Below are positions 11,955-45,782 of a stretch of DNA of 64,000 bases, one piece after another. The notes under the pieces were generated by a model that saw only the letters and a program-made list of their open reading frames with translations, was not told where the DNA came from and made no database searches. The position numbers and the translations under genes were made by a program. The DNA is from Nitrospinota bacterium. GTDB lineage: Bacteria > Nitrospinota_A > UBA7883. The stretch spans positions 1 through 64,000 of the forward strand of contig JAOUMU010000002.1 in the NCBI GenBank assembly GCA_029881335.1. The letters run 5' to 3'. Position 1 is the first letter of the stretch, and every line of letters starts with the position of its first letter.

Positions 11955-12977
11955 ATGGCGCTGTTTACATCAGGCGCGCCTTTCGCCATGGCCCATGGCC
12001 CGGCCGCCGGCCATGGCCCGGGCTTGCAGGGAAGGAACCTTTCCGGAGCGAACCTGAGCGGCCAGGATTATTCCGGCGCGAGCATGCAGGGGGCGGACCT
12101 TTCCGGCGCCAATTTATCCCGAGCGGACCTGAGTATGGCCAACCTGCAGGGTGCGGACCTGACCGGCGCCAACCTGGAAGGAGCCGACTTGAGCCGCGCC
12201 AGGATGGAAGGCGCCACGGTGTCCGCCGCGCGCATGGCCGGGGCCATCCTTAAATACGCCAGCGCCCAGGGAGTGGACTTTAGCGACAGCGACCTTAGAC
12301 GGGTGGACTTTTCCCGCGCAATGATGCAAAGCGTGGATTTGCGCGGGGCGGATCTTTCCGCTGCCAGGATGTCCGATGTCCATCTGGAAGGAGCGAAGAT
12401 GGCGGAGGTTGTCATGCCTGGCGCTGACCTTTCCGGCGCCAACCTTCAAAGCGCCCGGCTTTCCCGGGCCAACTTGGCGGGGGCCGATCTTTCCGGCGCC
12501 AGGATGGAAGGGGCGGATTTTTCCAGGGCTGTCCTGGCGGGGGCGGACCTGTCTTTCGCCAACCTGCAAAGCGCCGATTTTCGAAAGGCGGACCTGCGGG
12601 GAGCCCTGATAGTTGGGGCCCGCATGGAGGGCGCGGATTACTCCGGGGCGGACATGTCCGGCGCGGTCATCATGGAGGCGGACCGGGACAAAAAGGCTGA
12701 TCCGAGGGATTTTTCCGGCGCCCACACCGATTTCACACACTTGGGCAGGGACGGGGATGAATACTTCATCCAGGCCAGGCTGGCGGCGGCGTGCCACAGC
12801 AAATACGCGGCGGCGGGCATATTGCGCCAGACCGCGGGGGAAAAACCCAGAGCGCCGGAGAAAAACGGTGTTTTGAACCATATCGTACATCTGGACAAGG
12901 ACCTGGAGGGCCATATCAGGAAAAAATGCGGCAAGGAAACAGTGGATTATCTTAAAGATGAGGGACTGCTGGAATAG
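11955..12977 (+). CDS. secreted pentapeptide-repeat protein
   Basis: Dozens of A(D/N)LSGA-type pentapeptide repeats are present. The start is placed at the in-frame ATG at 11955, which gives the signal-like MALFTSGAPFAMA. Longer upstream frames overlap ftsB. Confidence 0.6.
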   Translation: MALFTSGAPFAMAHGPAAGHGPGLQGRNLSGANLSGQDYSGASMQGADLSGANLSRADLSMANLQGADLTGANLEGADLSRARMEGATVSAARMAGAILKYASAQGVDFSDSDLRRVDFSRAMMQSVDLRGADLSAARMSDVHLEGAKMAEVVMPGADLSGANLQSARLSRANLAGADLSGARMEGADFSRAVLAGADLSFANLQSADFRKADLRGALIVGARMEGADYSGADMSGAVIMEADRDKKADPRDFSGAHTDFTHLGRDGDEYFIQARLAAACHSKYAAAGILRQTAGEKPRAPEKNGVLNHIVHLDKDLEGHIRKKCGKETVDYLKDEGLLE

Positions 12978-13061
12978 TCCCGCGGGCGGCAAACACCCTC
13001 GGCCGGGGGATAATGAACCATATATGGGCGGCTGCAGCGGAAGAGAGAAATGTGAGGGGAA

Positions 13062-13802
13062 ATGAGCTGGCTGACAAAAACCATCGGGGGAACCGATGGG
13101 CTGACGCTGGGAGGGCCGATGGGTGAAGTATGCGGCCGGGCGCTGGAGGCTTTTTACGAAACAAACGTGATAAGCCCCGCCAAGCTGCGGTTGCTGGAGG
13201 AAAAATATTACTCCTCCAGGCTCGATGCCCGGGAGAAATCCCAGCTTCTTTTTTTCCTGGCCCTTTGCTCTTTGCTGGGAAAGATTTGTGTGGAGGACGA
13301 GAAAATATCCGCCGAAGAGGTGGATATCTCCACCAAAATAATGGTCGGCCCATTGAAGCTCTCGGGCGTATCGCTGGCTTTCGCCAAAATAGTGTTCCAC
13401 CAGGCCCGGGCCAGCCGACATTCCGCCAGGTCCATCGCTGCGCAGTTCCAGGCCCAGGTCGGCAAAAACGGGAGCAAGTCGGCTCAGTTCCTGGTGGAGT
13501 CTCTTCTGGTGGTCGCCTACGCGGATGGAGAAATGCACACGCGTGAATGGAGGATGATCAGCTCCATCGCCAGGATCCTTTTGGTGGATGGAAAGCGCCT
13601 GAAGCTGACCGCCGTCAAACACTCCCGAAAGACTGGCAATCTCTCCGCCCCGAGTGAAGAGGTGGAAAAGCGCCGAAAGCAGCTTGCCCGATTGTTCGAC
13701 CCAAAGACTATGGAGAAGAAACGAATCCCTCCGGAACTGGGCAAGTTCGCCGCCACCCAGCTGCGGGAGTTTAAAAAAGGCGGGATAAGCCGGGGAGGAT
13801 GA
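13062..13802 (+). CDS. TerB-like (tellurite-resistance TerB family) domain protein
   Basis: 246 aa. It shows VAYADGEMHTREWRMISSIARIL and a similar earlier half-repeat. The assignment is tentative. Confidence 0.4.
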   Translation: MSWLTKTIGGTDGLTLGGPMGEVCGRALEAFYETNVISPAKLRLLEEKYYSSRLDAREKSQLLFFLALCSLLGKICVEDEKISAEEVDISTKIMVGPLKLSGVSLAFAKIVFHQARASRHSARSIAAQFQAQVGKNGSKSAQFLVESLLVVAYADGEMHTREWRMISSIARILLVDGKRLKLTAVKHSRKTGNLSAPSEEVEKRRKQLARLFDPKTMEKKRIPPELGKFAATQLREFKKGGISRGG

Positions 13803-25764: not shown

Positions 25765-25840
25765 GCCCCCGTAGCTCAGGGGATAGAGCGCCGGATTCCT
25801 AATCCGTAGGTCGCAGGTTCAAATCCTGCCGGGGGTACCA
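25765..25840 (+). tRNA. tRNA-Arg (anticodon CCT) with encoded CCA
   Basis: Manual cloverleaf. Acceptor GCCCCCG / CGGGGGT (G1·U72). D-arm GCTC-AGGGGATA-GAGC. Anticodon arm CCGGA-TTCCTAA-TCCGT (U33, anticodon CCT, A37). T-arm GCAGG-TTCAAAT-CCTGC. Discriminator A73, then CCA. Confidence 0.8.
25795..25838 (+). repeat. attL: 44-bp core identical to 45277..45320 (anticodon loop to acceptor 3' end of tRNA-Arg)
   Basis: The exact 44/44 match ATTCCTAATCCGTAGGTCGCAGGTTCAAATCCTGCCGGGGGTAC was read directly. Confidence 0.9.
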
Positions 25841-26068: not shown

Positions 26069-26500
26069 TTAATCATCACCGTTATATCCCCAGACTTGAC
26101 GCCTTATTTGGTTCAATTCTTCCGGCGTTATTGTCCCAAGCTCAGGCTTTACCGGCTCAAGCTTTGTCGGCGCGTCCAGGCCGAGCAACTTGGCTTGACG
26201 CTCCATGGCCTTTAACATCAGACTGGCGGCCTTCCAATCCCCTTCCTTGGCTTTCTTGTAGCTTATGCCGATAATGGACTCCAGACGCAGAAGGGCGATA
26301 TCCCGCTCCATGATCGCTGTTTCATGGGTATCCGCGCGAATTGCCTCCAGCTCGCTTTTAATGTACTTGTGGACCATCACGGCGGAAACACCCAGCCGCT
26401 GGCCAATTTTCGCCAAGGTCAGCCCCTCCTTGCGAAGCTGGACCGCTTCCCTTTTCCGCTCCAGGGATATTACCTGCGTCTTACCTGTAATTTTTTTCAT
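26069..26500 (-). CDS. HTH DNA-binding protein (phage-type regulator or terminase-small-subunit-like)
   Basis: 143 aa. The LTLAKIGQRLGVSAVMVHKYIK helix-turn-helix is followed by a coiled-coil region. Confidence 0.5.
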   Translation of the reverse strand: MKKITGKTQVISLERKREAVQLRKEGLTLAKIGQRLGVSAVMVHKYIKSELEAIRADTHETAIMERDIALLRLESIIGISYKKAKEGDWKAASLMLKAMERQAKLLGLDAPTKLEPVKPELGTITPEELNQIRRQVWGYNGDD

Positions 26501-26790: not shown

Positions 26791-27966
26791 TTGAAAACCT
26801 TAAGAAAGGGAAAAAGAACCGGAGAGTTTGTTCTCAACGCCGTTGGTGGTGAACAGGTTCGCGCCTATCTGCCGCCACCACTGCCGCCAGAACCATCGCT
26901 CAATCTGGAAAAACTCTATGGTCTGATGGAAGACGCCAACAGGTCATTAGGACGGCTTGACGGCATCGCCTCAATCCTGCCGGACACTCCGTTATTCCTC
27001 TACATGTATGTCCGCAAGGAAGCGCTGCTTTCTTCCCAGATCGAAGGAACACAATCGTCCTTGTCTGACCTCTTGCTTTTTGAAAGCGATGAGGCTCCCG
27101 GAGCGCCGCTCGATGACGTCCAGGAAGTCTCCAATTACGTCGCCGCCATGAATTACGGGCTGGAGCGATTACGCGGCGGGTTTCCGTTATCGCTTCGGTT
27201 GATAAAAGAAATCCATGGAATCCTGCTTGCGATGGGGAGGGGGGCGACCAAGCAACCTGGTGAATTCCGGAGAAGTCAAAACTGGATCGGTGGCACACGT
27301 CCGGGCAATGCAATCTATGTTCCGCCGCCGCCCGACAAGGTGCTCGGTTGCATGGGTGAACTCGAAAAATTTATCTATGAGGAAGAGTCAAAGCTTCCAA
27401 CGCTAATCAAGGCGGCCCTGATCCATGTACAGTTTGAAAGCATTCACCCCTTCCTGGATGGTAACGGACGTTTGGGCCGGTTGCTCATCACTTTCCTTTT
27501 GTGCGCGGAAGGGGTTTTAAGCGAACCGATTCTTTATCTCAGTCTCTTTTTTAAAACGCATCGTCGCCGGTATTACGATCTTCTGCAAGACGTGCGTGAA
27601 GAAGGCGACTGGGAAGGGTGGCTGGAATTCTTTCTAACCGGCGTGAAAGAAACATCAGATCAGGCGGCGGAAGCGGCCCGCCGAATTCTTGCCGTTTTCG
27701 AGCGGGATCGGCGCAAGATCGAGGACCTTGGCCGACCAACCGCATCCGCGCTCAGAGTGCATCAATATCTGCAATCAAAACCGATTCTGTCTGTACCTGT
27801 CGCGACCAAGGCACTGGGCCTGACCGCTCCTACGGTCAGGAAATCCGTTGAGCATCTTCTGGAGCTGGGAGTCATGCGAGAGATCACCGGAAAAAAACGA
27901 GGCAAGTTATTCGTCTACGACGATTATCTCAACCTCCTCAATGAAGGAACGGAGCCGTTGCGATAA
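26791..27966 (+). CDS. Fic/DOC family protein (AMPylase-type fold) with a C-terminal winged-helix domain
   Basis: 391 aa with the canonical Fic motif HPFLDGNGRLGRLL. Its stop overlaps the SNF2 gene start (TAATG). Confidence 0.9.
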   Translation: MKTLRKGKRTGEFVLNAVGGEQVRAYLPPPLPPEPSLNLEKLYGLMEDANRSLGRLDGIASILPDTPLFLYMYVRKEALLSSQIEGTQSSLSDLLLFESDEAPGAPLDDVQEVSNYVAAMNYGLERLRGGFPLSLRLIKEIHGILLAMGRGATKQPGEFRRSQNWIGGTRPGNAIYVPPPPDKVLGCMGELEKFIYEEESKLPTLIKAALIHVQFESIHPFLDGNGRLGRLLITFLLCAEGVLSEPILYLSLFFKTHRRRYYDLLQDVREEGDWEGWLEFFLTGVKETSDQAAEAARRILAVFERDRRKIEDLGRPTASALRVHQYLQSKPILSVPVATKALGLTAPTVRKSVEHLLELGVMREITGKKRGKLFVYDDYLNLLNEGTEPLR

Positions 27967-30900
27967 TGCTACTCGATAACAAAAAGAACGGAAAGGTGGG
28001 TGACAAACTACGAACTCACTTAGCCAATGGCTCAAAGCTATCAATCATATCCGGTCTGTTTTCGATCTACGGTTTTGAATCTCTGAAAAAGGAACTGCAA
28101 AATATAGACGCTTTACGCCTTGTCTTGTCACAAAATCCAATAAACAGTAATTTGCAGGAAGCGGGAATTGCCTCCCTATCCGGAGACAGGTTTGAGCTAC
28201 GGTTCAAGAACCAGCTCAATCAGGCACAAGTTGCTAAAGAATGCGCTTCCTGGCTTAAAGAAAAAGCTGAAATACGTATAGCAACAAACCCCATGGCCAT
28301 AAGCCAAAATCTCTTTCACGTTCAAGAGGGGAATGGGGAAGCAATAGCCATTCAAGGCAGTTCCGAGTTCACCAGCACCGGTTTTGGATACACGGAAACT
28401 GACCGGTACCACATGAATACCTGCTCAACGGGCAAGGCAAGTACGATAGCAATGCTGGAGTGGTTTGAAGCCATCTGGGATGATCCATCGGCTGTTCAGG
28501 ATGCAAAGGAGCTACTTTTACGTCAGCTTTCCAACCTGACAAAGGATCATTCTCCTGAATTTATCTACTTTCTTACCCTCTACAACCTGTTTAAGGACTT
28601 CATCGAAGACATTGACGAAGACAACATTATCAAGGCCAAAACGGGATTCAAGGAAACCATCGTTTGGAAAAAGCTCTATAAATTTCAGCGCGACGGAGTC
28701 CTGGGTGCAATAGACAAAATCGAAAAATACAATGGTTGCATTATCGCAGACAGCGTGGGCTTGGGTAAAACTTTCGAGGCGTTGGCCGTTATCAAATATT
28801 ACGAGTTACGCAATGATCGCGTGCTTGTGCTATGCCCCAAAAAGCTAAGGGATAATTGGACGGTCTATACAGTAAACGACAAACGTAATCTGCTCGCCAA
28901 GGATCGGTTCAACTACGACGTTCTCAACCATACTGACCTGACCCGCCTGCAAGGCCGCTCTGGCGAAATCAATCTCGAAACCCTGAACTGGGGTAACTAC
29001 GATCTGGTTGTGATTGATGAGTCTCATAATTTCCGCAACAGCAGCTCATCAAGGGAAGGTCTTACCCGTTATTCCCGCCTGATGAATGAAATTATCCTAT
29101 CTGGCGTTAAAACCAAAGTCCTTATGCTTTCAGCCACTCCTGTTAATAGCCGAATGAACGACCTGAAGAATCAGGTCGCTTTTATTGCTGAAGGACTAGA
29201 TTTTGCCTACAGCGACTTCGGCATTGTAAGTATTGAGCAGACCTTGAAGAAAGCGCAAACCCGGTTTAATCAATGGCTCAAGCTGGACGATGAAAGCCGG
29301 TCGGTCGAAGGATTGCTTGACAGTATGAACTTCGATTACTTTAAGCTTCTGGACATTTTGACAATTGCCCGGTCGCGCAAGCACATTGAAAAATATTACG
29401 ACATAGCGGAGGTAGGCGATTTTCCCGAACGTCTAAAACCGATAAACATTAAGGAAGATATCGATAAGGGAGGGAAGTTTCCGCCCTTGGAAGAGATCAA
29501 CCGGAAGATTCGAAAGCTAAATCTCAGCGCTTATTCCCCACTTAAATATGTGCGAACAGAAAAGCGAGAGGAGTATAACCGCAAATACGATATCGAAGTA
29601 AAAGGCGGATCAATCTTTCGACAGGTTCACCGAGAACAAAGTCTGATCCACCTTATGCGAGTGAACCTGCTCAAACGCATGGAAAGCTCGATAAATTCAT
29701 TCAGCCTCACTTTGGGAAAGCTTCAGGGAGAGGTGGATCGCCTGATGGAAAAACTTGAAAACCACAGTAGCGAAGACCTCGAGGAGCTGGGGATCGAGGA
29801 TATTGAAGTCGATGAACCTGAATTTGACCCCTTCCTTATTGGCAAAAAAGTAAAGGTGCTAATCAAGGATTTGGACGAAGTTCGTTGGAAACAGGACCTT
29901 GAGGATGACCATGACAAACTGACCGAACTGCTATCAGAAGCACGAGACATCGAGGCGAAGCGCGATGCCAAGCTATACCGGTTACGCGCAATGATCGAGA
30001 ATAAATGCCAAAATCCGATCAATGACGGCAACCGCAAGATCATCGTCTTTACAGCTTTTACCGATACCGCCAATTATCTCTATGAACATCTTGCCGAGTG
30101 GGCAAAGGAGACCTTGGGCGTGTATTCGGCTAAAATCACAGGAAGCGGCACCAACAAGACTACAATGCCAGGCATGGGGAGCAACTTCGATACTCTTCTC
30201 GCTTCCTTTTCTCCAATCTCGAAGGAGCGGAGCAAAATAGACGAAGGGGCAACTGATGAAATTGACCTCCTGATCGCCACGGATTGCATATCTGAAGGGC
30301 AAAACCTTCAGGATTGCGATTATCTGATCAATTACGATATACACTGGAATCCAGTCCGCATCATTCAACGCTTTGGCCGCATAGACCGTCTTGGCTCAAA
30401 GAATAAGGTTATCCAACTCGTCAACTTCTGGCCAAACATGGAGCTGGATGAATATATCAACCTGGAAGCGCGGGTAAGCGGCCGTATGGTTCTTCTCGAT
30501 ATTTCCGCAACTGGCGAGGAAAATGTAATCGAGCAGGACACCACTGGCAAGATGAACGATCTTGAGTATCGGAGGAAACAGCTTCATCAGCTCAAGGATA
30601 CTGTCATCGATCTGGAAGATATATCGGGTGGCGTTTCAATCACCGATCTTACCCTAAACGATTTCCGGATGGACCTGTCCGCATTCATGAAGGAGCACTT
30701 GGGCGAATTGGAGCAATCACCCACCGGGCTTTATGCGGCCACGACGCTAGATTCCGAACTGCAAAAGGAAGAGCTGGAACCTGGTGTGATCTTTTGCCTG
30801 AAAAACATTGGCAAGACGGTTGCAGAGGAGGAAGGCTACGCGCTTGCTCCCTATTACATGGTCTACATCACCGACGATGGCCAGGTGAAATACACCTTCA

Positions 30901-31184
30901 CCCAGTCAAAGAGGATTCTTGACGTTCTGAAAAAGCATGGCCATGGGCAAAAACAAGCAGATGCCAAGGCCATTGAGCGCATGAACAAACGAACCAGAAA
31001 CGGCAAAGATATGAGCCATTACCGTTCGCTTTTGGAAACCGCCGTCAGTAGTATCGTAGGCAAGTCAGAAGAGAAGGGCGTAGAAAGCCTGTTCAGTCGT
31101 GGGGGAACCAACCTGACCAAGGAGAGTTTTCAGGGGATGGAAGACTTCGAGGTCATCAGCTACATGATTGTGAATACGCCATGA
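27966..31184 (+). CDS. SNF2-family helicase/ATPase with an N-terminal degenerate PLD-like domain
   Basis: 1072 aa. SNF2 motifs are ADSVGLGKTFEA (I), DLVVIDESHNFRN (II) and C-terminal QRFGRIDRLGS (VI). The N-terminal 150 aa carry an HKD-like segment HVQEGNGEAIAIQGSSEFT, with HxK degraded to HxQ. Confidence 0.85.
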   Translation: MLLDNKKNGKVGDKLRTHLANGSKLSIISGLFSIYGFESLKKELQNIDALRLVLSQNPINSNLQEAGIASLSGDRFELRFKNQLNQAQVAKECASWLKEKAEIRIATNPMAISQNLFHVQEGNGEAIAIQGSSEFTSTGFGYTETDRYHMNTCSTGKASTIAMLEWFEAIWDDPSAVQDAKELLLRQLSNLTKDHSPEFIYFLTLYNLFKDFIEDIDEDNIIKAKTGFKETIVWKKLYKFQRDGVLGAIDKIEKYNGCIIADSVGLGKTFEALAVIKYYELRNDRVLVLCPKKLRDNWTVYTVNDKRNLLAKDRFNYDVLNHTDLTRLQGRSGEINLETLNWGNYDLVVIDESHNFRNSSSSREGLTRYSRLMNEIILSGVKTKVLMLSATPVNSRMNDLKNQVAFIAEGLDFAYSDFGIVSIEQTLKKAQTRFNQWLKLDDESRSVEGLLDSMNFDYFKLLDILTIARSRKHIEKYYDIAEVGDFPERLKPINIKEDIDKGGKFPPLEEINRKIRKLNLSAYSPLKYVRTEKREEYNRKYDIEVKGGSIFRQVHREQSLIHLMRVNLLKRMESSINSFSLTLGKLQGEVDRLMEKLENHSSEDLEELGIEDIEVDEPEFDPFLIGKKVKVLIKDLDEVRWKQDLEDDHDKLTELLSEARDIEAKRDAKLYRLRAMIENKCQNPINDGNRKIIVFTAFTDTANYLYEHLAEWAKETLGVYSAKITGSGTNKTTMPGMGSNFDTLLASFSPISKERSKIDEGATDEIDLLIATDCISEGQNLQDCDYLINYDIHWNPVRIIQRFGRIDRLGSKNKVIQLVNFWPNMELDEYINLEARVSGRMVLLDISATGEENVIEQDTTGKMNDLEYRRKQLHQLKDTVIDLEDISGGVSITDLTLNDFRMDLSAFMKEHLGELEQSPTGLYAATTLDSELQKEELEPGVIFCLKNIGKTVAEEEGYALAPYYMVYITDDGQVKYTFTQSKRILDVLKKHGHGQKQADAKAIERMNKRTRNGKDMSHYRSLLETAVSSIVGKSEEKGVESLFSRGGTNLTKESFQGMEDFEVISYMIVNTP

Positions 31185-31939
31185 CCACAGCTATCACCCT
31201 CGATCAGTTCTACCAGAATATGGCCCTGCCGGAAGCATGCGCCCTTGGAAAGCGAATATTCAAAAAGCAGTTTTACGACAACGGCCAGCTAAACGCCGCC
31301 GACAAGAAGGCGTTTGTCGAGGATATAGAAAGCATCGAATGGCGTTACACGCTAAAACCCTCAACGATCAATATCCCCAAGCACGAAGACGAAACCCATG
31401 AATATCTGGAAGTGGCCATTCTTCAGGTTCTGCTTTCGGCTATGGGGAAAAGCGCACGAATCGCAATGGCCATGCAGAAAGCCATTCCTTATCCGGTTCT
31501 GATTGTCTTCGTTTACGGCGGCCAGCTTTCGCTTAACGTGGCGGAAAAGCGAATCAACCGCGCCGACAGCAACAAGATCGTTGTTGAGACCGCACACGAT
31601 AGCGGATGGATATCCTTGCAGGAACCGGAACAATGGCAGACCGATTTCTTCAATGATTTTCAAGTCACTAATTATTCCTTTCGCAACTTCTTTGACTTCT
31701 ATAAAGATATGGTGAAGCGGATCATAGCCCTGAACTGCGCCTGTCATACCGGTCAATATTCGCTAGGTACAAGCGTTGATAGGGTGGAAGCTTTGCGGCA
31801 GATGGAAAAGTTACAGCAGGAACGGAACGAGACCAGCAACTTGCTCAAAAAAGAAAAGAACCTGGGAACACAGGTTCAACTGAACACACGGATCAAACAG
31901 ATTACGGATCGCATAGAAGCGATTAAGGGCGAATTATGA
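31181..31939 (+). CDS. hypothetical protein; recalled as a DUF4391-like family member habitually encoded between SNF2 helicase and type III methyltransferase genes
   Basis: 252 aa. It overlaps the SNF2 stop by 4 bp (ATGA) and ends 5 bp before mod. The family assignment is by recollection only. Confidence 0.5.
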   Translation: MTTAITLDQFYQNMALPEACALGKRIFKKQFYDNGQLNAADKKAFVEDIESIEWRYTLKPSTINIPKHEDETHEYLEVAILQVLLSAMGKSARIAMAMQKAIPYPVLIVFVYGGQLSLNVAEKRINRADSNKIVVETAHDSGWISLQEPEQWQTDFFNDFQVTNYSFRNFFDFYKDMVKRIIALNCACHTGQYSLGTSVDRVEALRQMEKLQQERNETSNLLKKEKNLGTQVQLNTRIKQITDRIEAIKGEL

Positions 31940-31943
31940 GGGG

Positions 31944-33821
31944 ATGCGCATGGAAAAAATGACAAAGCAGGACGGCAAAAGCCTCGATATGGTGAAGGGG
32001 AATCTAGAAGCTTTAAAAACCATCTTCCCGGAAGCTTTTACAGAGGATGGCGTTAACTTTGAAACACTGCGGCAGTTGCTTGGCGACGAGGTTGATGATG
32101 GCGAGGAGAAATACGGTCTCAACTGGCATGGCAAGAAAAAGGCCCGCCAGATCGCATTGACTCCTTCTCTGGGAACTCTGCGCCCATGCCCGGAAGAGAG
32201 TGTCGATTGGAACACCACACAGAACCTCTTTATCGAAGGGGACAATCTGGAAGTCCTGAAGCTCTTGCAGAAAAGCTACGCCAACAAGGTCAAGATGATC
32301 TATATCGACCCGCCCTATAACACAGGGAAGGAGTTCATCTATCCCGACAAGTTCCAGGACAATCTTGATACATATCTCAAATATACCGGTCAGAAAGATG
32401 ATGAGGGGTTCAAGGTCAGCTCCAACACGGAAAGCTCAGGCAGGTACCACACCAACTGGTTGAATATGATATATCCCCGCTTAAAGCTAGCGAGGAATCT
32501 TCTTCGGGATGATGGGGTCATTTTTATCTCAATAGATGATAATGAATCTACAAACCTAAGGATAATTTGTAATGATATTTTTGGAGAAGAAAATTTCATT
32601 GGGTCATTAATATGGAAACGCCGAGTGTCATCAGCAATGGCTGATAATAACGTTTCATCTGATCACGACTATGTAGTTTGCTATCAAAAAGGCAATCTAA
32701 AAGGGTTTGCTGGATTTGAAAAGGATTTCAAAAGATATTCCAACCCAGATAATGATAAAAGAGGTCCTTGGATTTCAGACAATTTGACTGTAGGTATGAA
32801 TTCGTCAATGCGCCCTAATCAAGCGTATGATTTAGTCGATCCAAAAACAGGTAGTACATACCCATATAATCCTAATCGTGTTTGGGCTTTTATTCCAGAA
32901 ACGATGAATAGAATGATTGCTGAAGGCAGGATTATTTTCCCGGACGATCCTGCAAAGCGTCCAATGCAAAAACGATTTCAGAATGAGCTTAATAATACAC
33001 ACAACCCTTTTTCTACTTTGATGCTGGATAGAGTAGGGTTAAATACAGAGGCTACCCGGACTATCCAAGATGTAATGGAAAGGAATGTTTTCGAGTATTC
33101 AAAGCCTGTTTCACTGCTTAAAACATTAGTTCCGCAAATATGTGTAAGCAAAAACGATATAGTTTTAGACTTTTTTGCAGGTTCGTGTGTAACTGCTCAT
33201 GCAGTTCTGGACTTAAACAAAGATGGAGATGATAATCTCAAATTTGTCATGGTTCAGCTTCCAGAACCATGTGATGAAAAGTCAGAAGCATTCAAAGGAG
33301 GATATAAAACCATAGCAGACATTGGTAAAGAACGTATCCGCCGGGTAGCCGCTAAAATCAAGGAGGAAACTCCGTTATATCAAGGCGATCTTGGATTCAA
33401 GGTCTTCAAGCTCGATAGCAGTAACATCCAAACATGGAATCCGGACAGGGATGATCTGGAACAGACGCTTCTGGATCATGCGGATCATCTTGTGGAAGGG
33501 CGGAGCGAAGAGGATGTTCTCTATGAATTGCTCCTGAAGCGTGGTGTTGATCTGACCGTACCCATTGAGCAAAAGGAAGTATCCGGCAAGGCTGTTTATA
33601 GCATCGGTTATGGAGTGTTGTTCACTTGCCTGGACACCTCCATCAGCCGGGATGATGTGGAAAGCCTCGCCCAGGGGATCGTCGCATGGCATGAAGAGCT
33701 GAAGCCGGAGAGCGACACACAAGTGGTCTTTCGGGACAGCGCGTTCGCCGATGACATTGCAAAAACCAACATGACAGCCATTCTTGAACAGAACGGCATC
33801 GCTCATGTGCGTAGTCTGTGA
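31944..33821 (+). CDS. mod: type III restriction-modification Mod subunit (beta-class N6-adenine DNA methyltransferase)
   Basis: 625 aa. Motif IV is IYIDPPYNTG. Motif I is FFAGSCVTAHAV, in the C-terminal part (beta-class circular permutation). The middle region is the presumptive variable target-recognition domain. Confidence 0.88.
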   Translation: MRMEKMTKQDGKSLDMVKGNLEALKTIFPEAFTEDGVNFETLRQLLGDEVDDGEEKYGLNWHGKKKARQIALTPSLGTLRPCPEESVDWNTTQNLFIEGDNLEVLKLLQKSYANKVKMIYIDPPYNTGKEFIYPDKFQDNLDTYLKYTGQKDDEGFKVSSNTESSGRYHTNWLNMIYPRLKLARNLLRDDGVIFISIDDNESTNLRIICNDIFGEENFIGSLIWKRRVSSAMADNNVSSDHDYVVCYQKGNLKGFAGFEKDFKRYSNPDNDKRGPWISDNLTVGMNSSMRPNQAYDLVDPKTGSTYPYNPNRVWAFIPETMNRMIAEGRIIFPDDPAKRPMQKRFQNELNNTHNPFSTLMLDRVGLNTEATRTIQDVMERNVFEYSKPVSLLKTLVPQICVSKNDIVLDFFAGSCVTAHAVLDLNKDGDDNLKFVMVQLPEPCDEKSEAFKGGYKTIADIGKERIRRVAAKIKEETPLYQGDLGFKVFKLDSSNIQTWNPDRDDLEQTLLDHADHLVEGRSEEDVLYELLLKRGVDLTVPIEQKEVSGKAVYSIGYGVLFTCLDTSISRDDVESLAQGIVAWHEELKPESDTQVVFRDSAFADDIAKTNMTAILEQNGIAHVRSL

Positions 33822-36800
33822 GCGGGGATTACTACATGAAATTACATTTTGAAGACAATCTGGAATATCAGCATGCGGCTATTGAGGCCGTTGCCGACCT
33901 GTTCAGAGGGCAGGATATTTGCCGGACGGAATTTACCGTTACTTACCAATCCGACGATGGCGCACAAGGCAGGCTTGGCATTGCAGAAAGTGAACTAGGT
34001 ATCGGGAACCGTCTTCAGCTCCTGGATGATGAAATACTGAAGAATTTGCACGATATCCAGCTCCGTAATGGATTGCCCCCGTCGGACTCCCTTGCCAATG
34101 GCGACTTCACCGTCGAGATGGAGACCGGAACCGGCAAGACCTATGTTTATCTGCGTACCATATTCGAGCTGAACAAGCGTTATGGCTTCACCAAATTCGT
34201 TATAGTCGTCCCTTCCGTGGCCATCAAGGAGGGAACCTACAAGACACTCCAGATCACGAGGGAGCATTTTGAAAACCTCTTTCCGATAGCCAAAGGCTAC
34301 GAGTATTTCCTCTACGACTCCGGCAAGCTTGGGCAGGTGCGCAATTTTGCAACCAGTCCTAATATCCAGATCATGGTTGTGACCGTCGGCGCGATCAATA
34401 AAAAGGACGTGAACAACCTCTATAAGGATAGTGAAAAAACCGGTGGCGAAAAACCGATTTATCTTGTCCGGGCAACCCATCCAATCATCATTGTTGACGA
34501 ACCGCAGAGTGTGGATGGTGGCATGAAAGGTCAGGGAAAAAAAGCTCTTGAAGCCATGAACCCGCTCTGCACATTACGTTATTCAGCAACCCATGTAGAT
34601 AAACATCACATGCTCTATCGCCTAGATGCCGTGGACGCATATGACCGTGAGCTGGTCAAACAGATCGAAGTGGCCGCTCTGGAAGTGGAAGGTGGCCATA
34701 ACAAGCCTTATGTGAAGCTGGTCTCAACGCACAACAAAAAAGGCTCGATCACGGCCAAGGTGGAGCTGGATGTTCAACGAGGAAAGAACATCCGCCGCGA
34801 CATAGTGACCGTGGAGGATGGAGACGATCTGGAGCAGGAAACTGGCCGTGCAATCTATGAGAATTTCCGAATAGGAACAATCACCTGTGGGAAGGGTAAT
34901 CAGTCCTTGGATATCAGCATGCCTGGCGGTGAATACACCATGCAGCCGGGTGAGGAGGTTGGCGGCGTTAATCCAGACGATCTAAAGAGGCTGATGATCC
35001 GCCGCACGATCAAGGAACACCTGGACAAGGAAATACGCTTTGCGGCGCAGAAGCGGGAAGTGAAAGTGCTTAGCCTGTTCTTCGTTGATAGCGTCGAATA
35101 TTACCGAAGCTACGATGAAGACGGGAATGCGGTGAAGGGAAAATACGCCCTGATGTTTGAAGAGGAATACCGCAAGCTGGCGAAACAGGCGGACTACCAC
35201 ACGCTGTTTGAGAAGATCGATCTCGATACCGATGCCAGTGATGTTCATAATGGTTATTTCTCAATCGACAAAAAGGGCGGATGGACAGAAACAGCGGAGA
35301 ACAATCAATCCAACAGAGACAGTGCTGAACGCGCCTATAACCTGATTATGAAGGATAAGGAAAAGCTTCTCAGCTTTGACTCTAAGCTCAAATTCATATT
35401 CTCCCATTCAGCCCTGAAAGAAGGGTGGGATAATCCGAACGTCTTTCAAATATGCGCTCTGCGTGACATGGGATCAGAACGCGAACGGCGGCAAACCCTT
35501 GGGCGCGGTTTGCGGTTATGCGTCAACCAAGAAGGCCTTCGGCTCCGTGGTTTTGACATTAATACGCTTACCGTAATCGCAACCGAGAGCTATGAGCAAT
35601 TTGCAGAGAACCTCCAGAAGGAAATAGAGGAGGATACCGGAATCCGGTTTGGCATCGTAGAAAAGCATCAGTTCGCCACACTGCCCGTGACTGCCGAAGA
35701 TGGTACGACGCAACCTCTGGGGGTGGAGAAATCAGAAAAAGTCTGGGATTTCCTGAAGGTGAATGACTATCTGGATAACCGAGGGAAAGTTCAGGACAGC
35801 TTGAAAACAGCGTTAAAAGAAAACACTCTGAAGATACCAGAGGAATTTAAGGAGCAGGAAGCAGGGATCAAAGGTATTCTGCGCAAACTTGCCGGGAAGC
35901 TGGATATCAAGAATGCGGATGAGCGTGTTACCGTCCGGACACGAGAGGCGGTACTGGAGAGTGAAGAGTTTAAGGCTCTATGGGATCGCATCAAGCACAA
36001 GACGACTTATCGTGTCGAGTTTGACAATGCGAAACTTATTGAGGATTGCGGAAAGGCCATTTTGGCCGGGCCACCAATTACCAAAACCCGAGCGCAATTC
36101 CGTATGGCGGATATTGCTATCGGGAAGGGTGGGGTGGAGGCTAAAGAAACAGCTACGTCGGGATTTACATCGATCAACGAAACCGATATTGAACTTCCGG
36201 ATTTACTGACGGATTTGCAGGACAAGACGAGCCTGAAGCGGCGGAGCCTGGTCGAGATTCTCACCGGTTGCCGTCGCTTGAACGACTTTATGAAGAACCC
36301 GCAGGAATTCATCGAACTAGCGACGGAGGCAATCAACAGGATAAAACGCCTTGCGCTTGTTGACGGCATTCGATATCGGCGTGTCGGTGACGATCACTAC
36401 TACGCCCAGGAGCTTTTTCAGCAGGAAGAGTTGACCGGATATCTCAAGAATACTCTGGAAACGCAAAAATCTGTTTATGAGCGTGTCGTTTACGATTCCG
36501 CCGGTGTTGAAAAACGCTTTGTCGAAGATTTGGAAGGGAACGAGGCGGTCAAAGTCTACGCCAAGCTCCCCGGCTGGTTCAAAGTGCCGACGCCGCTTGG
36601 CACATACAACCCTGACTGGGCGGTTCTGGTGGAAATCGACGGGCAGGAAAAGCTCTATTTCGTTGTCGAGACCAAGGGCAGCAATTGGTGGGACGATCTG
36701 CGCCACAAGGAAGGGGCCAAGATCAAATGCGGTGAAAAACACTTCGCCGTGCTGGCCGAAGGCGACAACCCGGCCAAGTACATTAAAGCCACCTGCGTCG

Positions 36801-36823
36801 ATGACATGATGAAGAATGGTTGA
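33818..36823 (+). CDS. res: type III restriction enzyme Res subunit (SF2 helicase plus C-terminal PD-(D/E)xK nuclease)
   Basis: 1001 aa. Walker A is METGTGKTY. DEAD-like motif II is IIVDEPQS. The C-terminal nuclease motif is YNPDW...VVETKGS. It overlaps mod by 4 bp. Confidence 0.88.
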   Translation: MSGDYYMKLHFEDNLEYQHAAIEAVADLFRGQDICRTEFTVTYQSDDGAQGRLGIAESELGIGNRLQLLDDEILKNLHDIQLRNGLPPSDSLANGDFTVEMETGTGKTYVYLRTIFELNKRYGFTKFVIVVPSVAIKEGTYKTLQITREHFENLFPIAKGYEYFLYDSGKLGQVRNFATSPNIQIMVVTVGAINKKDVNNLYKDSEKTGGEKPIYLVRATHPIIIVDEPQSVDGGMKGQGKKALEAMNPLCTLRYSATHVDKHHMLYRLDAVDAYDRELVKQIEVAALEVEGGHNKPYVKLVSTHNKKGSITAKVELDVQRGKNIRRDIVTVEDGDDLEQETGRAIYENFRIGTITCGKGNQSLDISMPGGEYTMQPGEEVGGVNPDDLKRLMIRRTIKEHLDKEIRFAAQKREVKVLSLFFVDSVEYYRSYDEDGNAVKGKYALMFEEEYRKLAKQADYHTLFEKIDLDTDASDVHNGYFSIDKKGGWTETAENNQSNRDSAERAYNLIMKDKEKLLSFDSKLKFIFSHSALKEGWDNPNVFQICALRDMGSERERRQTLGRGLRLCVNQEGLRLRGFDINTLTVIATESYEQFAENLQKEIEEDTGIRFGIVEKHQFATLPVTAEDGTTQPLGVEKSEKVWDFLKVNDYLDNRGKVQDSLKTALKENTLKIPEEFKEQEAGIKGILRKLAGKLDIKNADERVTVRTREAVLESEEFKALWDRIKHKTTYRVEFDNAKLIEDCGKAILAGPPITKTRAQFRMADIAIGKGGVEAKETATSGFTSINETDIELPDLLTDLQDKTSLKRRSLVEILTGCRRLNDFMKNPQEFIELATEAINRIKRLALVDGIRYRRVGDDHYYAQELFQQEELTGYLKNTLETQKSVYERVVYDSAGVEKRFVEDLEGNEAVKVYAKLPGWFKVPTPLGTYNPDWAVLVEIDGQEKLYFVVETKGSNWWDDLRHKEGAKIKCGEKHFAVLAEGDNPAKYIKATCVDDMMKNG

Positions 36824-36835
36824 GGGATATTAGAA

Positions 36836-37051
36836 ATGATGGAAGATAATAAGCCACTCAATGTGCAAGTCACCTCCAAAGAAACACCCACTCTTTTAAA
36901 TACTGACCGCCTTCGGTTGCACTTGAAAGAAGATGGATTGGCAGTGGCTTTACTTGACGTATGGCTTGATGATCCAAAACTCGATAATCAGGCGCGTATG
37001 CTTCAAATTATCGATAGTTATCATAAAAAAAAGCAAGTGAACGATGGCTAG
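36836..37051 (+). CDS. small hypothetical protein (71 aa), translationally coupled to the downstream ABC ATPase
   Basis: It starts 13 bp after the res stop. Its stop overlaps the ATPase start (ATGGCTAG). Confidence 0.5.
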   Translation: MMEDNKPLNVQVTSKETPTLLNTDRLRLHLKEDGLAVALLDVWLDDPKLDNQARMLQIIDSYHKKKQVNDG

Positions 37052-39566
37052 GCCCCAACTACGAAAAATTGAAATCCAGGGATTCCGTAGCTTTGGCTCT
37101 GGGAAACAATCATTTGAATTATCCCAAACTGTATCGGTCCTTTGGGGTGGGAATAGCCAAGGTAAAACGAGCCTTGCCGAAGCTATTGAATTCCTTTTTA
37201 GTGGCCAAATCGCCCGTCGCGAGTTGCTAGCCAGTACGAAGGACGAGTTTTCAGACTCACTCCGAAACGCTCATATCCCTAATACACTCCCTGTTTTTGT
37301 ATCCGCTGAAATAGTATGTGCTGACGGAAAAATAAGGCAATTAAAGCGCGTATTGAGCGAGGATTACAAGAAAGGAAACCATGGATGTATCAGCACACTG
37401 GAAATTGATGGACTTCTTTGCCTAGATGGCGATATTGAAACAAAATTGGGTATTAAGCTCTTCCAAGCACCCCTAAGCTCACCAGTGCTGGCCCAACACA
37501 CTCTTGGATATATATTTTCCGCTGGCCCAAATGATCGCTCCACCTATTTTAGGGCTGTGCTGGATACACAGGATTTAGAAGATTTCCGTGCGGCTATTGC
37601 CGCCCTATCAGAGTATATTCCCACACCAGTCCTAAAAGAAAATGGACTCTTGCATGCTATCGAGATCATACCAGAGCTGGGTAATACAAGCAGTGCCATA
37701 CGGAAATCCAAATCGCTGTCCAATTTAGAGAATAGTTTACTTGATGCAACAACTGCTCTCCTAACCAGCCTGGGGCTTAATCCACAAGATCAGCTTGCGG
37801 CACAGGCTATACAGATCGAGGAGGAGTTAATAAAAAGACGTGCAAAGTCATTTCCCCTCGATCTGTTTACCAAATCCTCCTTCGTGCCATGGGATAAGAA
37901 TTCAGGTAGCTTGGATCAACACATTAAAATATTTTACGAGGAACGCGCTAAAATTGACGTGGAAACCCGAAGACTTGTCGATTTATTCAAGATGGCTTTG
38001 CTATTGCCTGAAGCCAGTAATGAGCCTGAAGTAGCAAACTGTCCATTATGTGGCACGATTGACGCTTTAACGCCAAAGCGCATCCATGCGATACGCGAAC
38101 AGGTTAAAGATACAGAAATATACCAAGCGGCCGAGAAAGATATCTGTCAAACTCTACAAGCAATATCAACAAGGTTGTCTTCCTTGACTACAGCTCTGGA
38201 TTCCTCTTTGCCAAAATTTATTTTGGAACAACCACAGGCCAGACGTGCAAAAGGATTTACCGTAACCCGCATGCGTGACCTCGTGAATGATGCAGCCATG
38301 GTTACAAATTGGCTTGTTCCTACACGCCAAATTATCCGTGCTTCAGTAACCTTTAGAAAATCAATTATCGATGCACAAACAACTATCAATACTGTCATAG
38401 ACAGTCTAGATATATGGAACGATAAAACATCGATAACCCGTGCACTCGATAAAGTTAAATCAGCTCAAGATGTATATGCACAAAGCATCGATAATTATAC
38501 GCAAGTGGCAGAGTTGCTCGTCGGGCCACTGAAGAGTGCTGTTGACCAAAGCACGAACACTAAAGGCTGGGAAGAACTGGCCAAGCTGGCACACAGTCCT
38601 ACCGCCTTGTGGAATGCACTTGTAGAAACGGCCACGTATGAGCAGAAGAAGAAAGACCTTAACAGGGCACTCAAGGAAATTGACGCTGGCAATGGCAGGG
38701 TTGCGGATGATAAATTCGCCGATATGAGCACAGAAGTTAAAAAATGGTGGGATTATTTGCGACCTGATGAAACAACATTCTTTGATGCTGTGCAACGGCG
38801 TAGCACAAAAGCACGGCGAAATATTGACATTAAAGTCGGCCTTTCTGCTACTGAAGATCGTAGCAATCCGGCATTCCGAAATGCTGTTGCCGTATTTAGT
38901 CAATCGCAATTGCATTGCCTTGGTCTTTCGATGTTCCTAGCCCGAGCTGTGCAAGCTAAAACGGGATTCATTGTAATGGATGATCCTGTTTTGACTAGCG
39001 ATGACGATTTTAGACCTAATTTTGCTTCAACTGTCATCGAGGGTCTGTTGAATGAAGGGGTGCAATCCATAATTCTGACACAAGATCATTCGAGCTGGAA
39101 AGATATTGGACATCGTTGGGTACACCGCGATGTTGCCCAATTTCAAATTGTGTGCAACAACCCACTTTTGGGAACTGAAATCAGAAATCAGAATGATGGT
39201 CTTGCTACTATGATTGCAAGGGCACAGCCATTTGTTAAATCACACGACCTTGACCAACAAAAAACAGGTGCTACCCAAATACGATTATCTATCGAACGTT
39301 TCGGTAAAGAAATTCTTGTACGGAAAAGTCGCCTTGACGGTAACCAGATAGCTTCCATAACTGACTATGACGGAAAGAACTTCGGTGAATTCAGTAATTC
39401 TGTTTATGCCCTTCTCACAAAAGACCCTGCTCATCCAGGCAAGCTGAAGGCTGCGCATTCATACGTTACGCCAGGGGCACACGACGATACTCCTCCATCG
39501 TCAGGCAAGCTTTCAACGGCACTTGGAGACCTGAAGAAAATGAAGCGCGACTATCTAGACTCATAA
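37044..39566 (+). CDS. Rad50/SbcC-like ABC ATPase with a coiled-coil insertion and a CxxC zinc-hook motif; candidate RloC-like anticodon nuclease or other defence ATPase
   Basis: 840 aa. Walker A is GGNSQGKTS near the N-terminus. A long helical middle region contains CPLCG near residue 330. A signature-like QLHCLGLS and Walker B FIVMDDP are followed by an extra C-terminal domain of about 170 aa containing an R-x3-E...H pattern (IRLSIER ... DPAH). Confidence 0.6.
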   Translation: MARPQLRKIEIQGFRSFGSGKQSFELSQTVSVLWGGNSQGKTSLAEAIEFLFSGQIARRELLASTKDEFSDSLRNAHIPNTLPVFVSAEIVCADGKIRQLKRVLSEDYKKGNHGCISTLEIDGLLCLDGDIETKLGIKLFQAPLSSPVLAQHTLGYIFSAGPNDRSTYFRAVLDTQDLEDFRAAIAALSEYIPTPVLKENGLLHAIEIIPELGNTSSAIRKSKSLSNLENSLLDATTALLTSLGLNPQDQLAAQAIQIEEELIKRRAKSFPLDLFTKSSFVPWDKNSGSLDQHIKIFYEERAKIDVETRRLVDLFKMALLLPEASNEPEVANCPLCGTIDALTPKRIHAIREQVKDTEIYQAAEKDICQTLQAISTRLSSLTTALDSSLPKFILEQPQARRAKGFTVTRMRDLVNDAAMVTNWLVPTRQIIRASVTFRKSIIDAQTTINTVIDSLDIWNDKTSITRALDKVKSAQDVYAQSIDNYTQVAELLVGPLKSAVDQSTNTKGWEELAKLAHSPTALWNALVETATYEQKKKDLNRALKEIDAGNGRVADDKFADMSTEVKKWWDYLRPDETTFFDAVQRRSTKARRNIDIKVGLSATEDRSNPAFRNAVAVFSQSQLHCLGLSMFLARAVQAKTGFIVMDDPVLTSDDDFRPNFASTVIEGLLNEGVQSIILTQDHSSWKDIGHRWVHRDVAQFQIVCNNPLLGTEIRNQNDGLATMIARAQPFVKSHDLDQQKTGATQIRLSIERFGKEILVRKSRLDGNQIASITDYDGKNFGEFSNSVYALLTKDPAHPGKLKAAHSYVTPGAHDDTPPSSGKLSTALGDLKKMKRDYLDS

Positions 39567-40057: not shown

Positions 40058-42652
<2,595 letters not shown>

Positions 42653-43811: not shown

Positions 43812-45074
43812 TTAATCAATCCCGCCCGCTTTCTTGAATGGCAGAACGTCCGCGCCACCTTTTCGCCCGGCCCGTGTAAGGATTGCGTCCGTTATCCTTT
43901 GCATGGGCGCCCTTAGCCTTTCCGCGTCGTGAACTATATAGCCCTCCGTCACGTCTCCGGCCTGCTTGTGGTTCAATAATCGCTTCAAAGCGTATCCGCT
44001 TATGTCCAGGCTTTCCGCCACCGTGGCGAATGTCCGCCGCAAGTCATGGACAGTAAACTTCACCCCAGATATGGCTGTTATCTTCTTCATTTGGCGCCGG
44101 GGCTCCATAAGGTGGCCGGTTTTGCTTCTATCTGGGAATACATATTCACTTGATAGGTTCGCACCACGGCGCCGGTCCAGCATTTCATAAACCATATCGC
44201 TCATGGGCAAGGTTAGCGGCTGGCTGTTCTTTGTGTCCGTTATGGTGAAGGTCTTTTCTGCCATATCAACATCGGCCCATTTCAAATGGGCCGCCTCTTG
44301 CCGTCTTAATCCCGTAAAGAGAATCAATTCCAGATAATCCGGGACAACTTCCGTTGTCTTTGTGCTTTCCATCAATTCGCTTCTTAGCGCGTCCAGAGCG
44401 TCAAGAAACACGCCAAGGCTTGAATCCTTAATGTAGGTCCGTTTCCTGTCCACTTTATACCAAGCTCGTGTTTCGGAAAGACGCTTGACGGGATTTACCT
44501 GCAATAGCGGCTGGCCATCGTTTGTTTCGTATTTTGCCATCGCGAAATTGAAAACCGCCCGCAATACCCTCATGGCCTGATTCCCCTGGGCGGGGCCGTG
44601 ATCCTTGGCGATATCAGCATGGCGTTGTTGAATCATGTTCTTAGTAATTCCCCTTACCTGCTTCCCCAGCCAATCGCCAAACCGCTTTTCCACTTGGTAC
44701 CTATAATCAAGAACTGTCCGGGGCTTTAATTGTTTCCGCGCCATCATATATTCATCAAACGCTTCCCTTAACGTCACCTGGGCCGCTCTGGCCGCTTGCT
44801 TTTCCGCCATGGGGTCCACGCCCTGGGTCATTTCCGAAAGCCGTTGTAATGCCATTGAGCGGGCTTGGTCCGGAGTTAATTTCCCATGCTTCCCTAAGGT
44901 AACCCTTACTGAGCGGCCTGATACGCGTGATTGAACAACATACACCTTCCCGGAAGGAACAACCTTTACACCGAAGCCTTGCAAAGCCTTATCCCAATAA
45001 AAGACCGATTTCCCCGGCTCTGTAACGGGGGGAAGACCGTCAACCGCCGATTTTGTGATCTTCATTTTCGCCAT
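43812..45074 (-). CDS. int: tyrosine-type site-specific integrase (P4-like, with an N-terminal DUF4102 arm-binding domain)
   Basis: 420 aa. The N-terminus is GLPPVTEPGKSVFYWDKALQGFGVKVVPSGKVYVVQSRV (Arm-DNA-bind type). The C-terminal catalytic region carries the R...HDLRRTF...Y pattern. Confidence 0.9.
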   Translation of the reverse strand: MAKMKITKSAVDGLPPVTEPGKSVFYWDKALQGFGVKVVPSGKVYVVQSRVSGRSVRVTLGKHGKLTPDQARSMALQRLSEMTQGVDPMAEKQAARAAQVTLREAFDEYMMARKQLKPRTVLDYRYQVEKRFGDWLGKQVRGITKNMIQQRHADIAKDHGPAQGNQAMRVLRAVFNFAMAKYETNDGQPLLQVNPVKRLSETRAWYKVDRKRTYIKDSSLGVFLDALDALRSELMESTKTTEVVPDYLELILFTGLRRQEAAHLKWADVDMAEKTFTITDTKNSQPLTLPMSDMVYEMLDRRRGANLSSEYVFPDRSKTGHLMEPRRQMKKITAISGVKFTVHDLRRTFATVAESLDISGYALKRLLNHKQAGDVTEGYIVHDAERLRAPMQRITDAILTRAGRKGGADVLPFKKAGGID

Positions 45075-45276: not shown

Positions 45277-45320
45277 AATTCCTAATCCGTAGGTCGCAGG
45301 TTCAAATCCTGCCGGGGGTA
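45277..45320 (+). repeat. attR: duplicated 3' 44 bp of tRNA-Arg
   Basis: Exact match to 25795..25838. It is followed by TTTTT instead of CCA. Confidence 0.9.
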
Positions 45321-45782
45321 CTTTTTCTACTGTATACCAAAAACGCCGCTTCTCCTCTCCGCCAATTCTGAAGACGGGGAACACGTAAGCGTTCCTCCAT
45401 GACAGAATCCACTTTCCACGGCGTCCACACCTCCTGCTGGTTAAACAGAAAGTGTAACGCATGACTCCGGTACGATATGTCACCTATGTCTCGGGTAGCT
45501 CAGAGACTCTTTACTCACACAAACGGGATGGTGCGGTCCTCCCCGGCTTATCCGATTTTCCAAGCCGCTGTTGTTCGCGTCCACCCCGATGGCGCAGACT
45601 ACGTGCAGGGCCCTCAAGAAAGAGCGCAACATCCTTTAAACTCCATGATAAATATGGTAGAATCCGCGCATTGCATCTCTGATGCTAGGTGGGGCGAATG
45701 GTTATCCAGGTCAAATGGTATTTCATTGCCGCGAGATTGGCGGCGATCCTCGTAGCCTGTGTGTATAATTATGGATGAAGTC

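Follow-up and report, generated by a model that had tools for sequence, protein, structure and literature searches.

A 64,000-nucleotide stretch of the Nitrospinota bacterium contig JAOUMU010000002.1 (assembly GCA_029881335.1, positions 1 to 64,000, forward strand; hereafter the window) carries a compact operon of four genes, encoding an SNF2-family ATPase, a protein of the DUF4391 family, and the Mod methyltransferase and Res nuclease-helicase of a type III restriction-modification (R-M) system. The operon is a type III R-M system with a conserved and uncharacterised motor-adaptor add-on, placed between classical type III systems and the DISARM defence systems. Its four open reading frames (ORFs) all lie on the forward strand at 27966-36823, where an earlier reading of the sequence (the original prediction) had put them (Table 1).

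The genes are closely packed. The stop codon of the SNF2 gene, at the upstream end of the operon, overlaps the DUF4391 start by 4 nucleotides (nt), a 4-nt gap lies between DUF4391 and Mod, and Mod shares 4 nt with Res, provided that Res uses its GTG start. Since many homologue alignments begin at Met7, the true Res start may be at 33836. Profile searches placed the parts of the operon in the families that the original prediction had expected for them, and not in unrelated ones.

Table 1. Features of the operon, of the surrounding island and of related loci (aa, amino acids; nt, nucleotides; L numbers denote loci of the comparison set, with positions in those loci)
Feature	Position	Strand	Evidence or remark
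SNF2-family ATPase gene, 1072 aa	27966-31184	+	Pfam, PADLOC, motifs
PLD-fold (phospholipase D) domain of SNF2 protein, ~aa 1-180	27966-28505	+	
Degenerate HKD motif HVQEGNGEAIAIQGSSEFT, aa 118-136	28317-28373	+	Read from sequence
DUF4391 gene, 252 aa	31181-31939	+	Pfam PF14335
Type III Mod methyltransferase gene, 625 aa	31944-33821	+	Pfam, PADLOC, EcoP15I Mod match
Type III Res gene, 1001 aa from GTG	33818-36823	+	Pfam, PADLOC, EcoP15I Res match
Left 44-nt direct repeat	25795-25838	+	Inside tRNA-Arg(CCT), 25765-25840
Helix-turn-helix (HTH) ORF, 143 aa, divergent	26069-26500	-	Sub-threshold sigma-70 region-4-type matches
SoFic-type Fic/DOC gene	26791-27966	+	PADLOC SoFic 1.4e-123; Pfam Fic_N + Fic
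Toprim/DUF3987 primase-helicase-like protein of island	40058-42148	-	DUF3987 1.5e-95
Tyrosine integrase of island	43812-45074	-	Phage_integrase + Arm-DNA-bind_3
Right 44-nt direct repeat	45278-45321	+	Identical to left copy; distal island end
Operon-embedded defence genes	L001 11811-13497; L004 9710-13002; L005 12693-13565		
Regulator upstream of SNF2	L006, L008-L010, L012, L020, L026; L004 4806-5711; L031 7685-7918		
DISARM-core/type III hybrid	L029, B. cereus plasmid NZ_AP022875.1, 3137-16870		

Mod and Res are complete EcoP15I-type subunits, with methyltransferase, helicase and PD-(D/E)xK motifs intact. Mod matches PF01555 (N6_N4_Mtase, 3.7e-33) and the PADLOC model MTase_III (5.5e-226), and among solved structures it aligns with the Mod subunits of EcoP15I (3.7e-78) and H. 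pylori (7.8e-88). Its DPPY(N) motif lies at residue 122 and the AdoMet motif FAGSCVT at residue 411, as in type III Mod proteins, and its central region varies between loci, as expected for a target-recognition domain. Res carries PF04851 (ResIII) and PF19778 (RE_endonuc, 2.8e-35), scores 1257 bits against PADLOC REase_III and matches the EcoP15I Res structure at 1.1e-71, with GTGKT at residue 104 and a C-terminal PD...ExK at residues 932-953, as in type III Res. PADLOC called MTase_III and REase_III for the two genes, and the initial description of both subunits as canonical type III is borne out.

Characteristically, type III enzymes cleave DNA only in the presence of ATP and of two unmethylated sites in inverse orientation, and they hemimethylate an asymmetric site. 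With EcoP15I and EcoP1I (Mod2Res), the window pair shares full-length homology of both subunits, motifs, domain order and the mod-then-res gene order. It differs in that its Res belongs to a distinct subfamily, and the classical systems carry no SNF2 or DUF4391 genes. This subfamily has 144 full-length matches on plasmids (33-72% identity), whereas with P1/P15-type Res the alignment covers 60% of the length at about 31% identity. Plain Mod-Res pairs with the same Res subfamily were found in S. epidermidis and in Aeromonas, where the pair adjoins an insertion sequence element, and a further Mod-Res locus of this subfamily has other genes inserted and neither SNF2 nor DUF4391. Because the same Res subfamily occurs as plain Mod-Res, the type III core is probably self-sufficient and the SNF2-DUF4391 pair accessory.

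The first gene encodes the motor. Its product matches Pfam SNF2-rel_dom (50 bits) and Helicase_C (53.6 bits), both above their cut-offs, in agreement with the coupled 1072-aa SNF2 ATPase originally described, and its closest solved structures are RapA, Sth1 and SMARCA5. The motifs GLGKT (residue 265), DESH (351) and QRFGRIDR (801) are present, and motifs I, II and VI (GLGKT, DESH, QRFGR[IV]DR) do not vary among the 36 full-length homologues examined. The ATPase core is intact and strictly conserved. A PADLOC model named 'C3a139 HKD+Snf2' matches the protein over residues 25-1069 at 7.7e-134. The existence of this full-length model indicates that the helicase family has been noticed before; no described system was traced for it.

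The N-terminal domain of the SNF2 protein has the PLD fold of the PLD/HKD superfamily but not its catalytic signature: where HxK(x)4D...GSxN is expected, the protein reads H118-V-Q-E-G-N-G-E...G-S-S-E-F-T. The original view of a degenerate PLD-like N-terminus holds for the fold and for the GSSEFT core. Its statement that the HxK(x)4D residues had been lost holds only in part, as the His is kept, while Lys is replaced by Gln, Asp by Glu and Asn by Glu. No Pfam PLD domain (PLDc) was detected in residues 1-230, and a family profile search found no PDB sequence relative of the domain; about ten SNF2 homologues have a precomputed PLDc_2 match. The HKD Lys is missing in 120 of 120 aligned family members, the residue at the Asn position is variable, and the His too is gone from a large clade of alphaproteobacterial members. 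For these reasons, the PLD domain is predicted to be nuclease-dead throughout the type III-linked SNF2 family. By contrast, a more distant homologue from Planktothrix (28% identity), found in an AbiR-like context, retains H-A-K and with it the H-x-K pattern that the type III-linked family lacks.

The second gene confirms the DUF4391 assignment made at the outset. Its 252-aa product matches PF14335 with 231.1 bits (E=2e-68) against a gathering score of 29.9, over positions 1-230 of the 232-position model. In the AlphaFold model, which is confident (pLDDT 89.3), three long helices come after an alpha/beta domain of some 165 residues, and the C-terminus is modelled as a long-helix hairpin. Among proteins sharing 23-90% identity, the conserved positions are P17, K28, I52-x-W54, T62-I-N-I, E77, I102-P-Y-P, K123-R-x-N-x-A-D129, W143, Y174 and, in the C-terminal helix, K-x-E-x-x-x-N...V-x-L-N. 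No catalytic family match was found in Pfam, NCBIfam, PADLOC or solved structures, and no solved structural relative was found. The sole result of a PDB sequence search with the DUF4391 profile, Vps74, is at chance level and was rejected. The last helices resemble the adaptor domain EAD9 below threshold (18.9 bits vs 25); this and a likewise sub-threshold resemblance to HEPN_Apea were set aside as weak leads.

The DUF4391 family is large, with 1983 clusters at 50% identity (E<=0.001; 1040 at E<=1e-10), and it evolves quickly. In 33 of 33 loci, DUF4391 is the least conserved of the four proteins, which suggests a surface facing phage counter-measures or a specificity-matching interface. In copies of the Listeria, Enterococcus and Lactococcus type, the DUF4391 slot is occupied by a 185-aa protein. 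On a Listeria monocytogenes plasmid (L030, 11184-11741) this protein is annotated as 'hypothetical protein'; its match to the DUF4391 core I-x-W...T-I-N-L-P is only weak (hhalign E=2.5e-4), and annotation pipelines miss Listeria-type DUF4391 for this reason.

Related loci were gathered by four routes, namely DUF4391 matches on plasmids, species-representative genomes, SNF2 matches on plasmids and diverse DUF4391 representatives. The set holds 43 loci with a DUF4391 gene, 41 of which have an assessable upstream neighbour; the sample behind these counts is biased and in part redundant, having been retrieved mostly through DUF4391 or SNF2 homology and including several near-duplicates of one lineage. 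An SNF2 gene lies directly upstream of DUF4391 on the same strand in 36 of the 41, usually with overlapping stop and start codons, so that the four-gene arrangement is indeed recurrent, as the original prediction had it. Mod and Res follow DUF4391 wherever the contig reaches, and no DUF4391 gene without a type III Mod downstream was found among the 43 loci where the contig allowed judgement.

The gene order SNF2, DUF4391, Mod, Res is conserved, with overlapping or abutting stop and start codons, and the hosts, which belong to no fewer than seven phyla, include Alpha- and Gammaproteobacteria, Nitrospinota, Bacteroidota, Clostridia, Bacilli, Actinomycetota and one Methanosarcinales archaeon. A full-length SNF2 protein of this family is encoded in 113 plasmid records, with carriers such as Listeria, Enterococcus, Bacillus cereus, Acinetobacter and E. 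coli; in the last, a copy was found in 10 of 5426 complete genomes, mainly plasmid-borne, one of them at NZ_CP029493.1, 151905-160933. Relative to the window proteins, the median identity of SNF2 is 58%, that of Res 64%, that of Mod (best segment) 53% and that of DUF4391 35%, and the SNF2 and Res identities are tightly correlated (Spearman rho=0.90). Across phyla, the four genes have been passed on together as a single unit.

The combination of SNF2 protein, adenine methyltransferase and helicase had been likened to DISARM, with classical DISARM excluded for want of DrmB (DUF1998). Both statements are upheld. DrmA and DUF1998 are absent from the Pfam and PADLOC matches of the genes on the surrounding island, and tblastn with B. 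cereus DrmA and DrmB finds neither in the window. The SNF2 protein matches PADLOC DrmD at 2e-40 and NCBIfam DISARM_DrmD with 165.8 bits, against a curated cut-off of 610 and over its C-terminal half only. In class 1 DISARM, DrmC is a separate PLD-domain protein and DrmMI is a PF13659 methylase, and deletion of drmD and drmMI nearly abolishes protection against one phage (bioRxiv 10.1101/2021.12.28.474362). In the window, the PLD domain is fused to SNF2 and degenerate, and the methylase belongs to PF01555. Within a single defence operon, both systems bring together an SNF2 helicase with an adenine methylase and a domain of the PLD family; they differ in that the window has no DrmA or DrmB, its nuclease-helicase is a type III Res, and DUF4391 is not a DISARM component.

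Nevertheless, the comparison is apt, as relatives of the operon adjoin drmA-drmB or swap in DrmD. At least seven B. cereus plasmids carry drmA and a DUF1998 (drmB) gene immediately upstream of SNF2-DUF4391-Mod-Res, in the same orientation and with a gap of 33 bp. A Rhizobium plasmid (L034, NZ_CP072872.1, 1648-10976) carries HTH, DrmD, Mod, DUF262 and Res genes in this order and no DUF4391; its 949-aa DrmD (PADLOC DrmD 1.6e-212, 706 bits) has no PLD domain, and its Res is of the same subfamily. Here a second SNF2 family fills the place directly before Mod. A DUF4391-like tail on this DrmD was considered, and hhalign gave it no support.

Other defence systems also pair PLD-like domains with helicases. 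For example, AbiRc of the Lactococcus AbiR system, a PLD-like and Snf2 protein, needs its cognate methylase and is toxic without it (PMC13064643). The window protein shares the AbiRc architecture of an N-terminal SauUSI-like PLD domain and Snf2, the methylase dependence being that of AbiRc. The partners differ: AbiR has sigma70-like AbiRa and ParB-like AbiRb, whereas the window has DUF4391, Mod and Res. No AbiR partners were found around the SNF2 gene, which is flanked by SoFic and DUF4391, and a ParB-like match is absent from the island. Type-2 BREX-related (BR) systems place an HKD and Swi2/Snf2 helicase beside a methylase and the small alpha+beta protein DUF3780 (PMC12839542), and PbeA fuses an HKD/PLD domain to an SF2 helicase (PMC10853773). 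In both, the HKD domain is predicted to be an active effector, whereas that of the window is predicted to be dead and accompanied by a type III Res. Their partners are DUF499, DUF1156 and DUF3780, or a CxC-ABC ATPase with DndE; no island ORF matches these families, and the matches to PbeA and PbeC are weak and partial. SauUSI is a single-protein, modification-dependent type IV enzyme with an active PLD nuclease and an SF2 helicase, and so differs from the window system both in being one protein and in its active PLD site.

A few loci depart from the four-gene order. In 3 of the 41, all of one lineage (L037-L039, metagenome contigs), DUF4391 forms part of a nuclease-helicase fusion, and the SNF2 gene lies upstream in divergent orientation. 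In L037 (9001-13260), the fused protein has 1419 aa and combines a RecB-like nuclease (RNase_H_2) with an SF1 helicase (AAA_11/AAA_12), DUF4391 being its C-terminal part; the Mod and Res genes come after it. DUF4391 is evidently attachable to a different helicase. A protein annotated as SNF2 plus DUF4391 (P0139) was rejected as evidence of fusion, being a deletion chimera. In 2 of the 41 loci, again of one lineage, a CBASS operon stands in place of the SNF2 gene. Proteins of this type (L040-L042, metagenome contigs; L040 9001-10410) join an E2-like domain (HVNADGSFCL) to DUF4391 in 469 aa and are encoded directly after the CBASS SAVED-HNH effector and CD-NTase and before Mod and Res. Since a 41-codon SNF2 remnant is left upstream, CBASS appears to have replaced the SNF2 gene in this lineage. 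The locus L013 (10785-17669) has two tandem Mod genes and a Res alignment split in three pieces, suggesting frameshifts in a copy that is decaying or phase-varied.

Additional genes are found within or beside the operon. Those embedded in it encode a split GmrSD, an OLD-family nuclease with DUF2130, Bro-N and DUF262; the operon behaves like an insertion hotspot, as do type I R-M and Hma loci. In many loci, the SNF2 gene is preceded by a gene for an HTH protein of about 60 aa or for a WYL-domain protein, of which the E. coli plasmid copy retains only a WYL remnant. This suggests a dedicated transcriptional controller for the operon, one that the window copy does without.

The window operon itself is mobile cargo. 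A perfect 44-nt repeat, corresponding to the 3' part of tRNA-Arg(CCT), flanks a 19.5-kb segment, and GC content falls over ~26-47 kb. Because the repeats, the lower GC content, a tyrosine integrase and a Toprim/DUF3987 gene bracket or accompany it, the four-gene operon is the cargo of an integrative island at tRNA-Arg. Recognisable or candidate defence genes make up most of the island cargo. No DNA nearly identical to the window was found in E. coli genomes.

The last base of the SoFic gene is the first base of the SNF2 start codon, and the two genes are translationally coupled. SoFic is absent from most related loci, and it is an embedded or neighbouring defence gene outside the conserved module. 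A Methylococcaceae locus (L018) has a Fic gene between Mod and Res (12770-13750). The closest relative of the window operon (L005, from a Nitrospinaceae metagenome-assembled genome, 90-92% identity) keeps about 20 codons of a Fic 3' end upstream of SNF2 (~6700-6780, reading LFVY..YL..L.E). Fic genes seem to have been repeatedly gained and lost by the operon.

Downstream of Res (36836-39566), a 71-aa ORF overlaps the start of a gene for an 840-aa SMC/Rad50-like ABC ATPase with a CPLC (zinc-hook-like) motif at its centre and some 160 aa of additional sequence at its C-terminus; its best PADLOC match is LmuB (1.6e-18). The ATPase was rejected as a fifth component of the operon, as neither the related loci nor the plasmids searched hold a homologue. 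The two genes may be an uncharacterised defence pair in their own right. Between Res and the two genes no terminator-like site was detected; the promoter and terminator scans were at chance level and uninformative on transcription units.

Taken together, these observations lead us to favour, with moderate confidence, a reading in which SNF2-DUF4391 is an accessory motor-plus-adaptor module working with a self-sufficient type III core. As with EcoP15I, Mod would mark host sites and Res would cut invading DNA that is unmethylated. In active PLD nucleases, two PLD domains come together to make a single active site, and on this ground the dead domain is proposed to serve, probably, in SNF2 dimerisation, as a DNA clamp, or in DNA or phosphate binding. 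DUF4391 would probably link the motor to Mod-Res as an adaptor. Driven by ATP, SNF2 and DUF4391 together would then serve as an accessory motor and widen or strengthen the restriction of unmethylated DNA, possibly by translocation, by stripping proteins from incoming DNA or as a collision partner for Res, in a role analogous to that of DrmD in class 1 DISARM. By analogy, AbiRc and DrmD, the nearest experimentally studied motors, support such a restriction-side role.

Several points weigh against this reading. The contact of SNF2 and DUF4391 with Mod and Res, and their effect on restriction, are inferred. The DUF4391 fold gives no functional clue, and its resemblance to EAD9 may reflect coiled-coil composition. 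The co-occurrence counts rest on the biased locus sample described above. Finally, the plain Mod-Res pairs mean that the add-on is dispensable in some lineages, which fits a regulatory or an independent role equally well.

A bolder form of the accessory-module reading, which we advance tentatively, is that SNF2-DUF4391 physically joins the type III enzyme and alters how it finds or cuts DNA, with DUF4391 as a new adaptor fold. If so, directed translocation in place of passive one-dimensional sliding, cleavage at single or head-to-tail sites, which classical type III enzymes leave uncut, and clearing of protective proteins from phage DNA would be examples of what the module adds. Such an enzyme would connect classical type III R-M mechanistically with DISARM-type systems, and DUF4391 would dock other helicases too, for example in the SF1 helicase-nuclease fusion P0385.

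Control of restriction is an alternative that we consider unlikely, although part of the genetic context would suit it. SNF2-DUF4391 would displace or restrain Res at transiently unmethylated host sites, as a restriction-alleviation or establishment device, which would matter most after DNA repair or when the mobile element reaches a host that is naive and unmethylated. The module is nearly always found on plasmids or integrative islands, which need to establish themselves in new hosts; SNF2 and DUF4391 precede Mod and Res in the operon; small HTH or WYL regulators often adjoin it upstream; and, with its PLD domain dead, the motor is itself no killer. However, plasmids also keep plain Mod-Res pairs of this subfamily without the module, the closest studied motors (AbiRc and DrmD) act on the restriction side, and a host-directed controller gives no obvious cause for the rapid evolution of DUF4391.

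It is less probable still that SNF2 and DUF4391 form an independent two-gene defence system, merely co-located with type III R-M. Such co-location would be in keeping with the unrelated defence genes that the operon hosts (GmrSD, OLD with DUF2130, SoFic, Bro-N and DUF262) and with the occurrence of the Res subfamily without the pair. Against this, none of the 43 loci, where the contig was assessable, has DUF4391 without a downstream type III Mod, gene order and stop-start coupling are kept from archaea to Firmicutes, the divergence of SNF2 and that of Res are correlated, and neither SNF2 nor DUF4391 has a recognisable active effector domain.

We also regard as improbable, and slightly more so, a guard or back-up role, in which DUF4391 senses phage anti-restriction proteins or damage to Mod-Res and then unleashes the SNF2 motor, much as PrrC or guards of the retron type serve other restriction systems. 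Type I and III loci are known to harbour guards such as PrrC and RloC, and DUF4391 is the fastest-evolving component in every comparison, but no toxic effector is evident, given the dead PLD domain and a DUF4391 without a catalytic-family match. That the operon is class 1 DISARM is barely credible and already refuted for the window: the DrmD-like C-terminal half of SNF2, the PLD-like domain and adenine methylase, and the drmA and drmB genes beside the module on B. cereus plasmids are outweighed by the missing DrmA and DrmB, a DrmD score well under the cut-off, a PF01555 Mod rather than a PF13659 DrmMI, and a complete Res instead.

In line with the original remark that the arrangement has no named mechanism, the searchable literature (subscription-only papers lying outside the search) yielded no description of the four-gene system or of DUF4391 function and no mention of PF14335. 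Searches on type III, SNF2, HKD, DrmD and PADLOC terms returned only related but different systems (Hma, BREX-related BR, Pbe, AbiR and ARMADA). DUF4391 itself appears in a gene-content table and in one recent preprint, which uses "DUF4391" for PhiKZ gp127 in a passage on DUF7941 proteins (bioRxiv 10.64898/2026.04.21.720040); this mention is almost certainly a slip for DUF7941, with no real link.

In the textbook model, a type III system consists of two subunits, and yet in many of these systems two further genes are strictly inherited along with them. As the PADLOC library v2.0.0 and NCBIfam have no DUF4391 model, better annotation of defence systems is possible, and native E. coli plasmid copies make the role of the add-on directly testable. 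Once known, that role would provide a function for DUF4391 and would help to explain why SNF2 motors recur beside methylases in DISARM, BREX-related, AbiR and Dpd systems.

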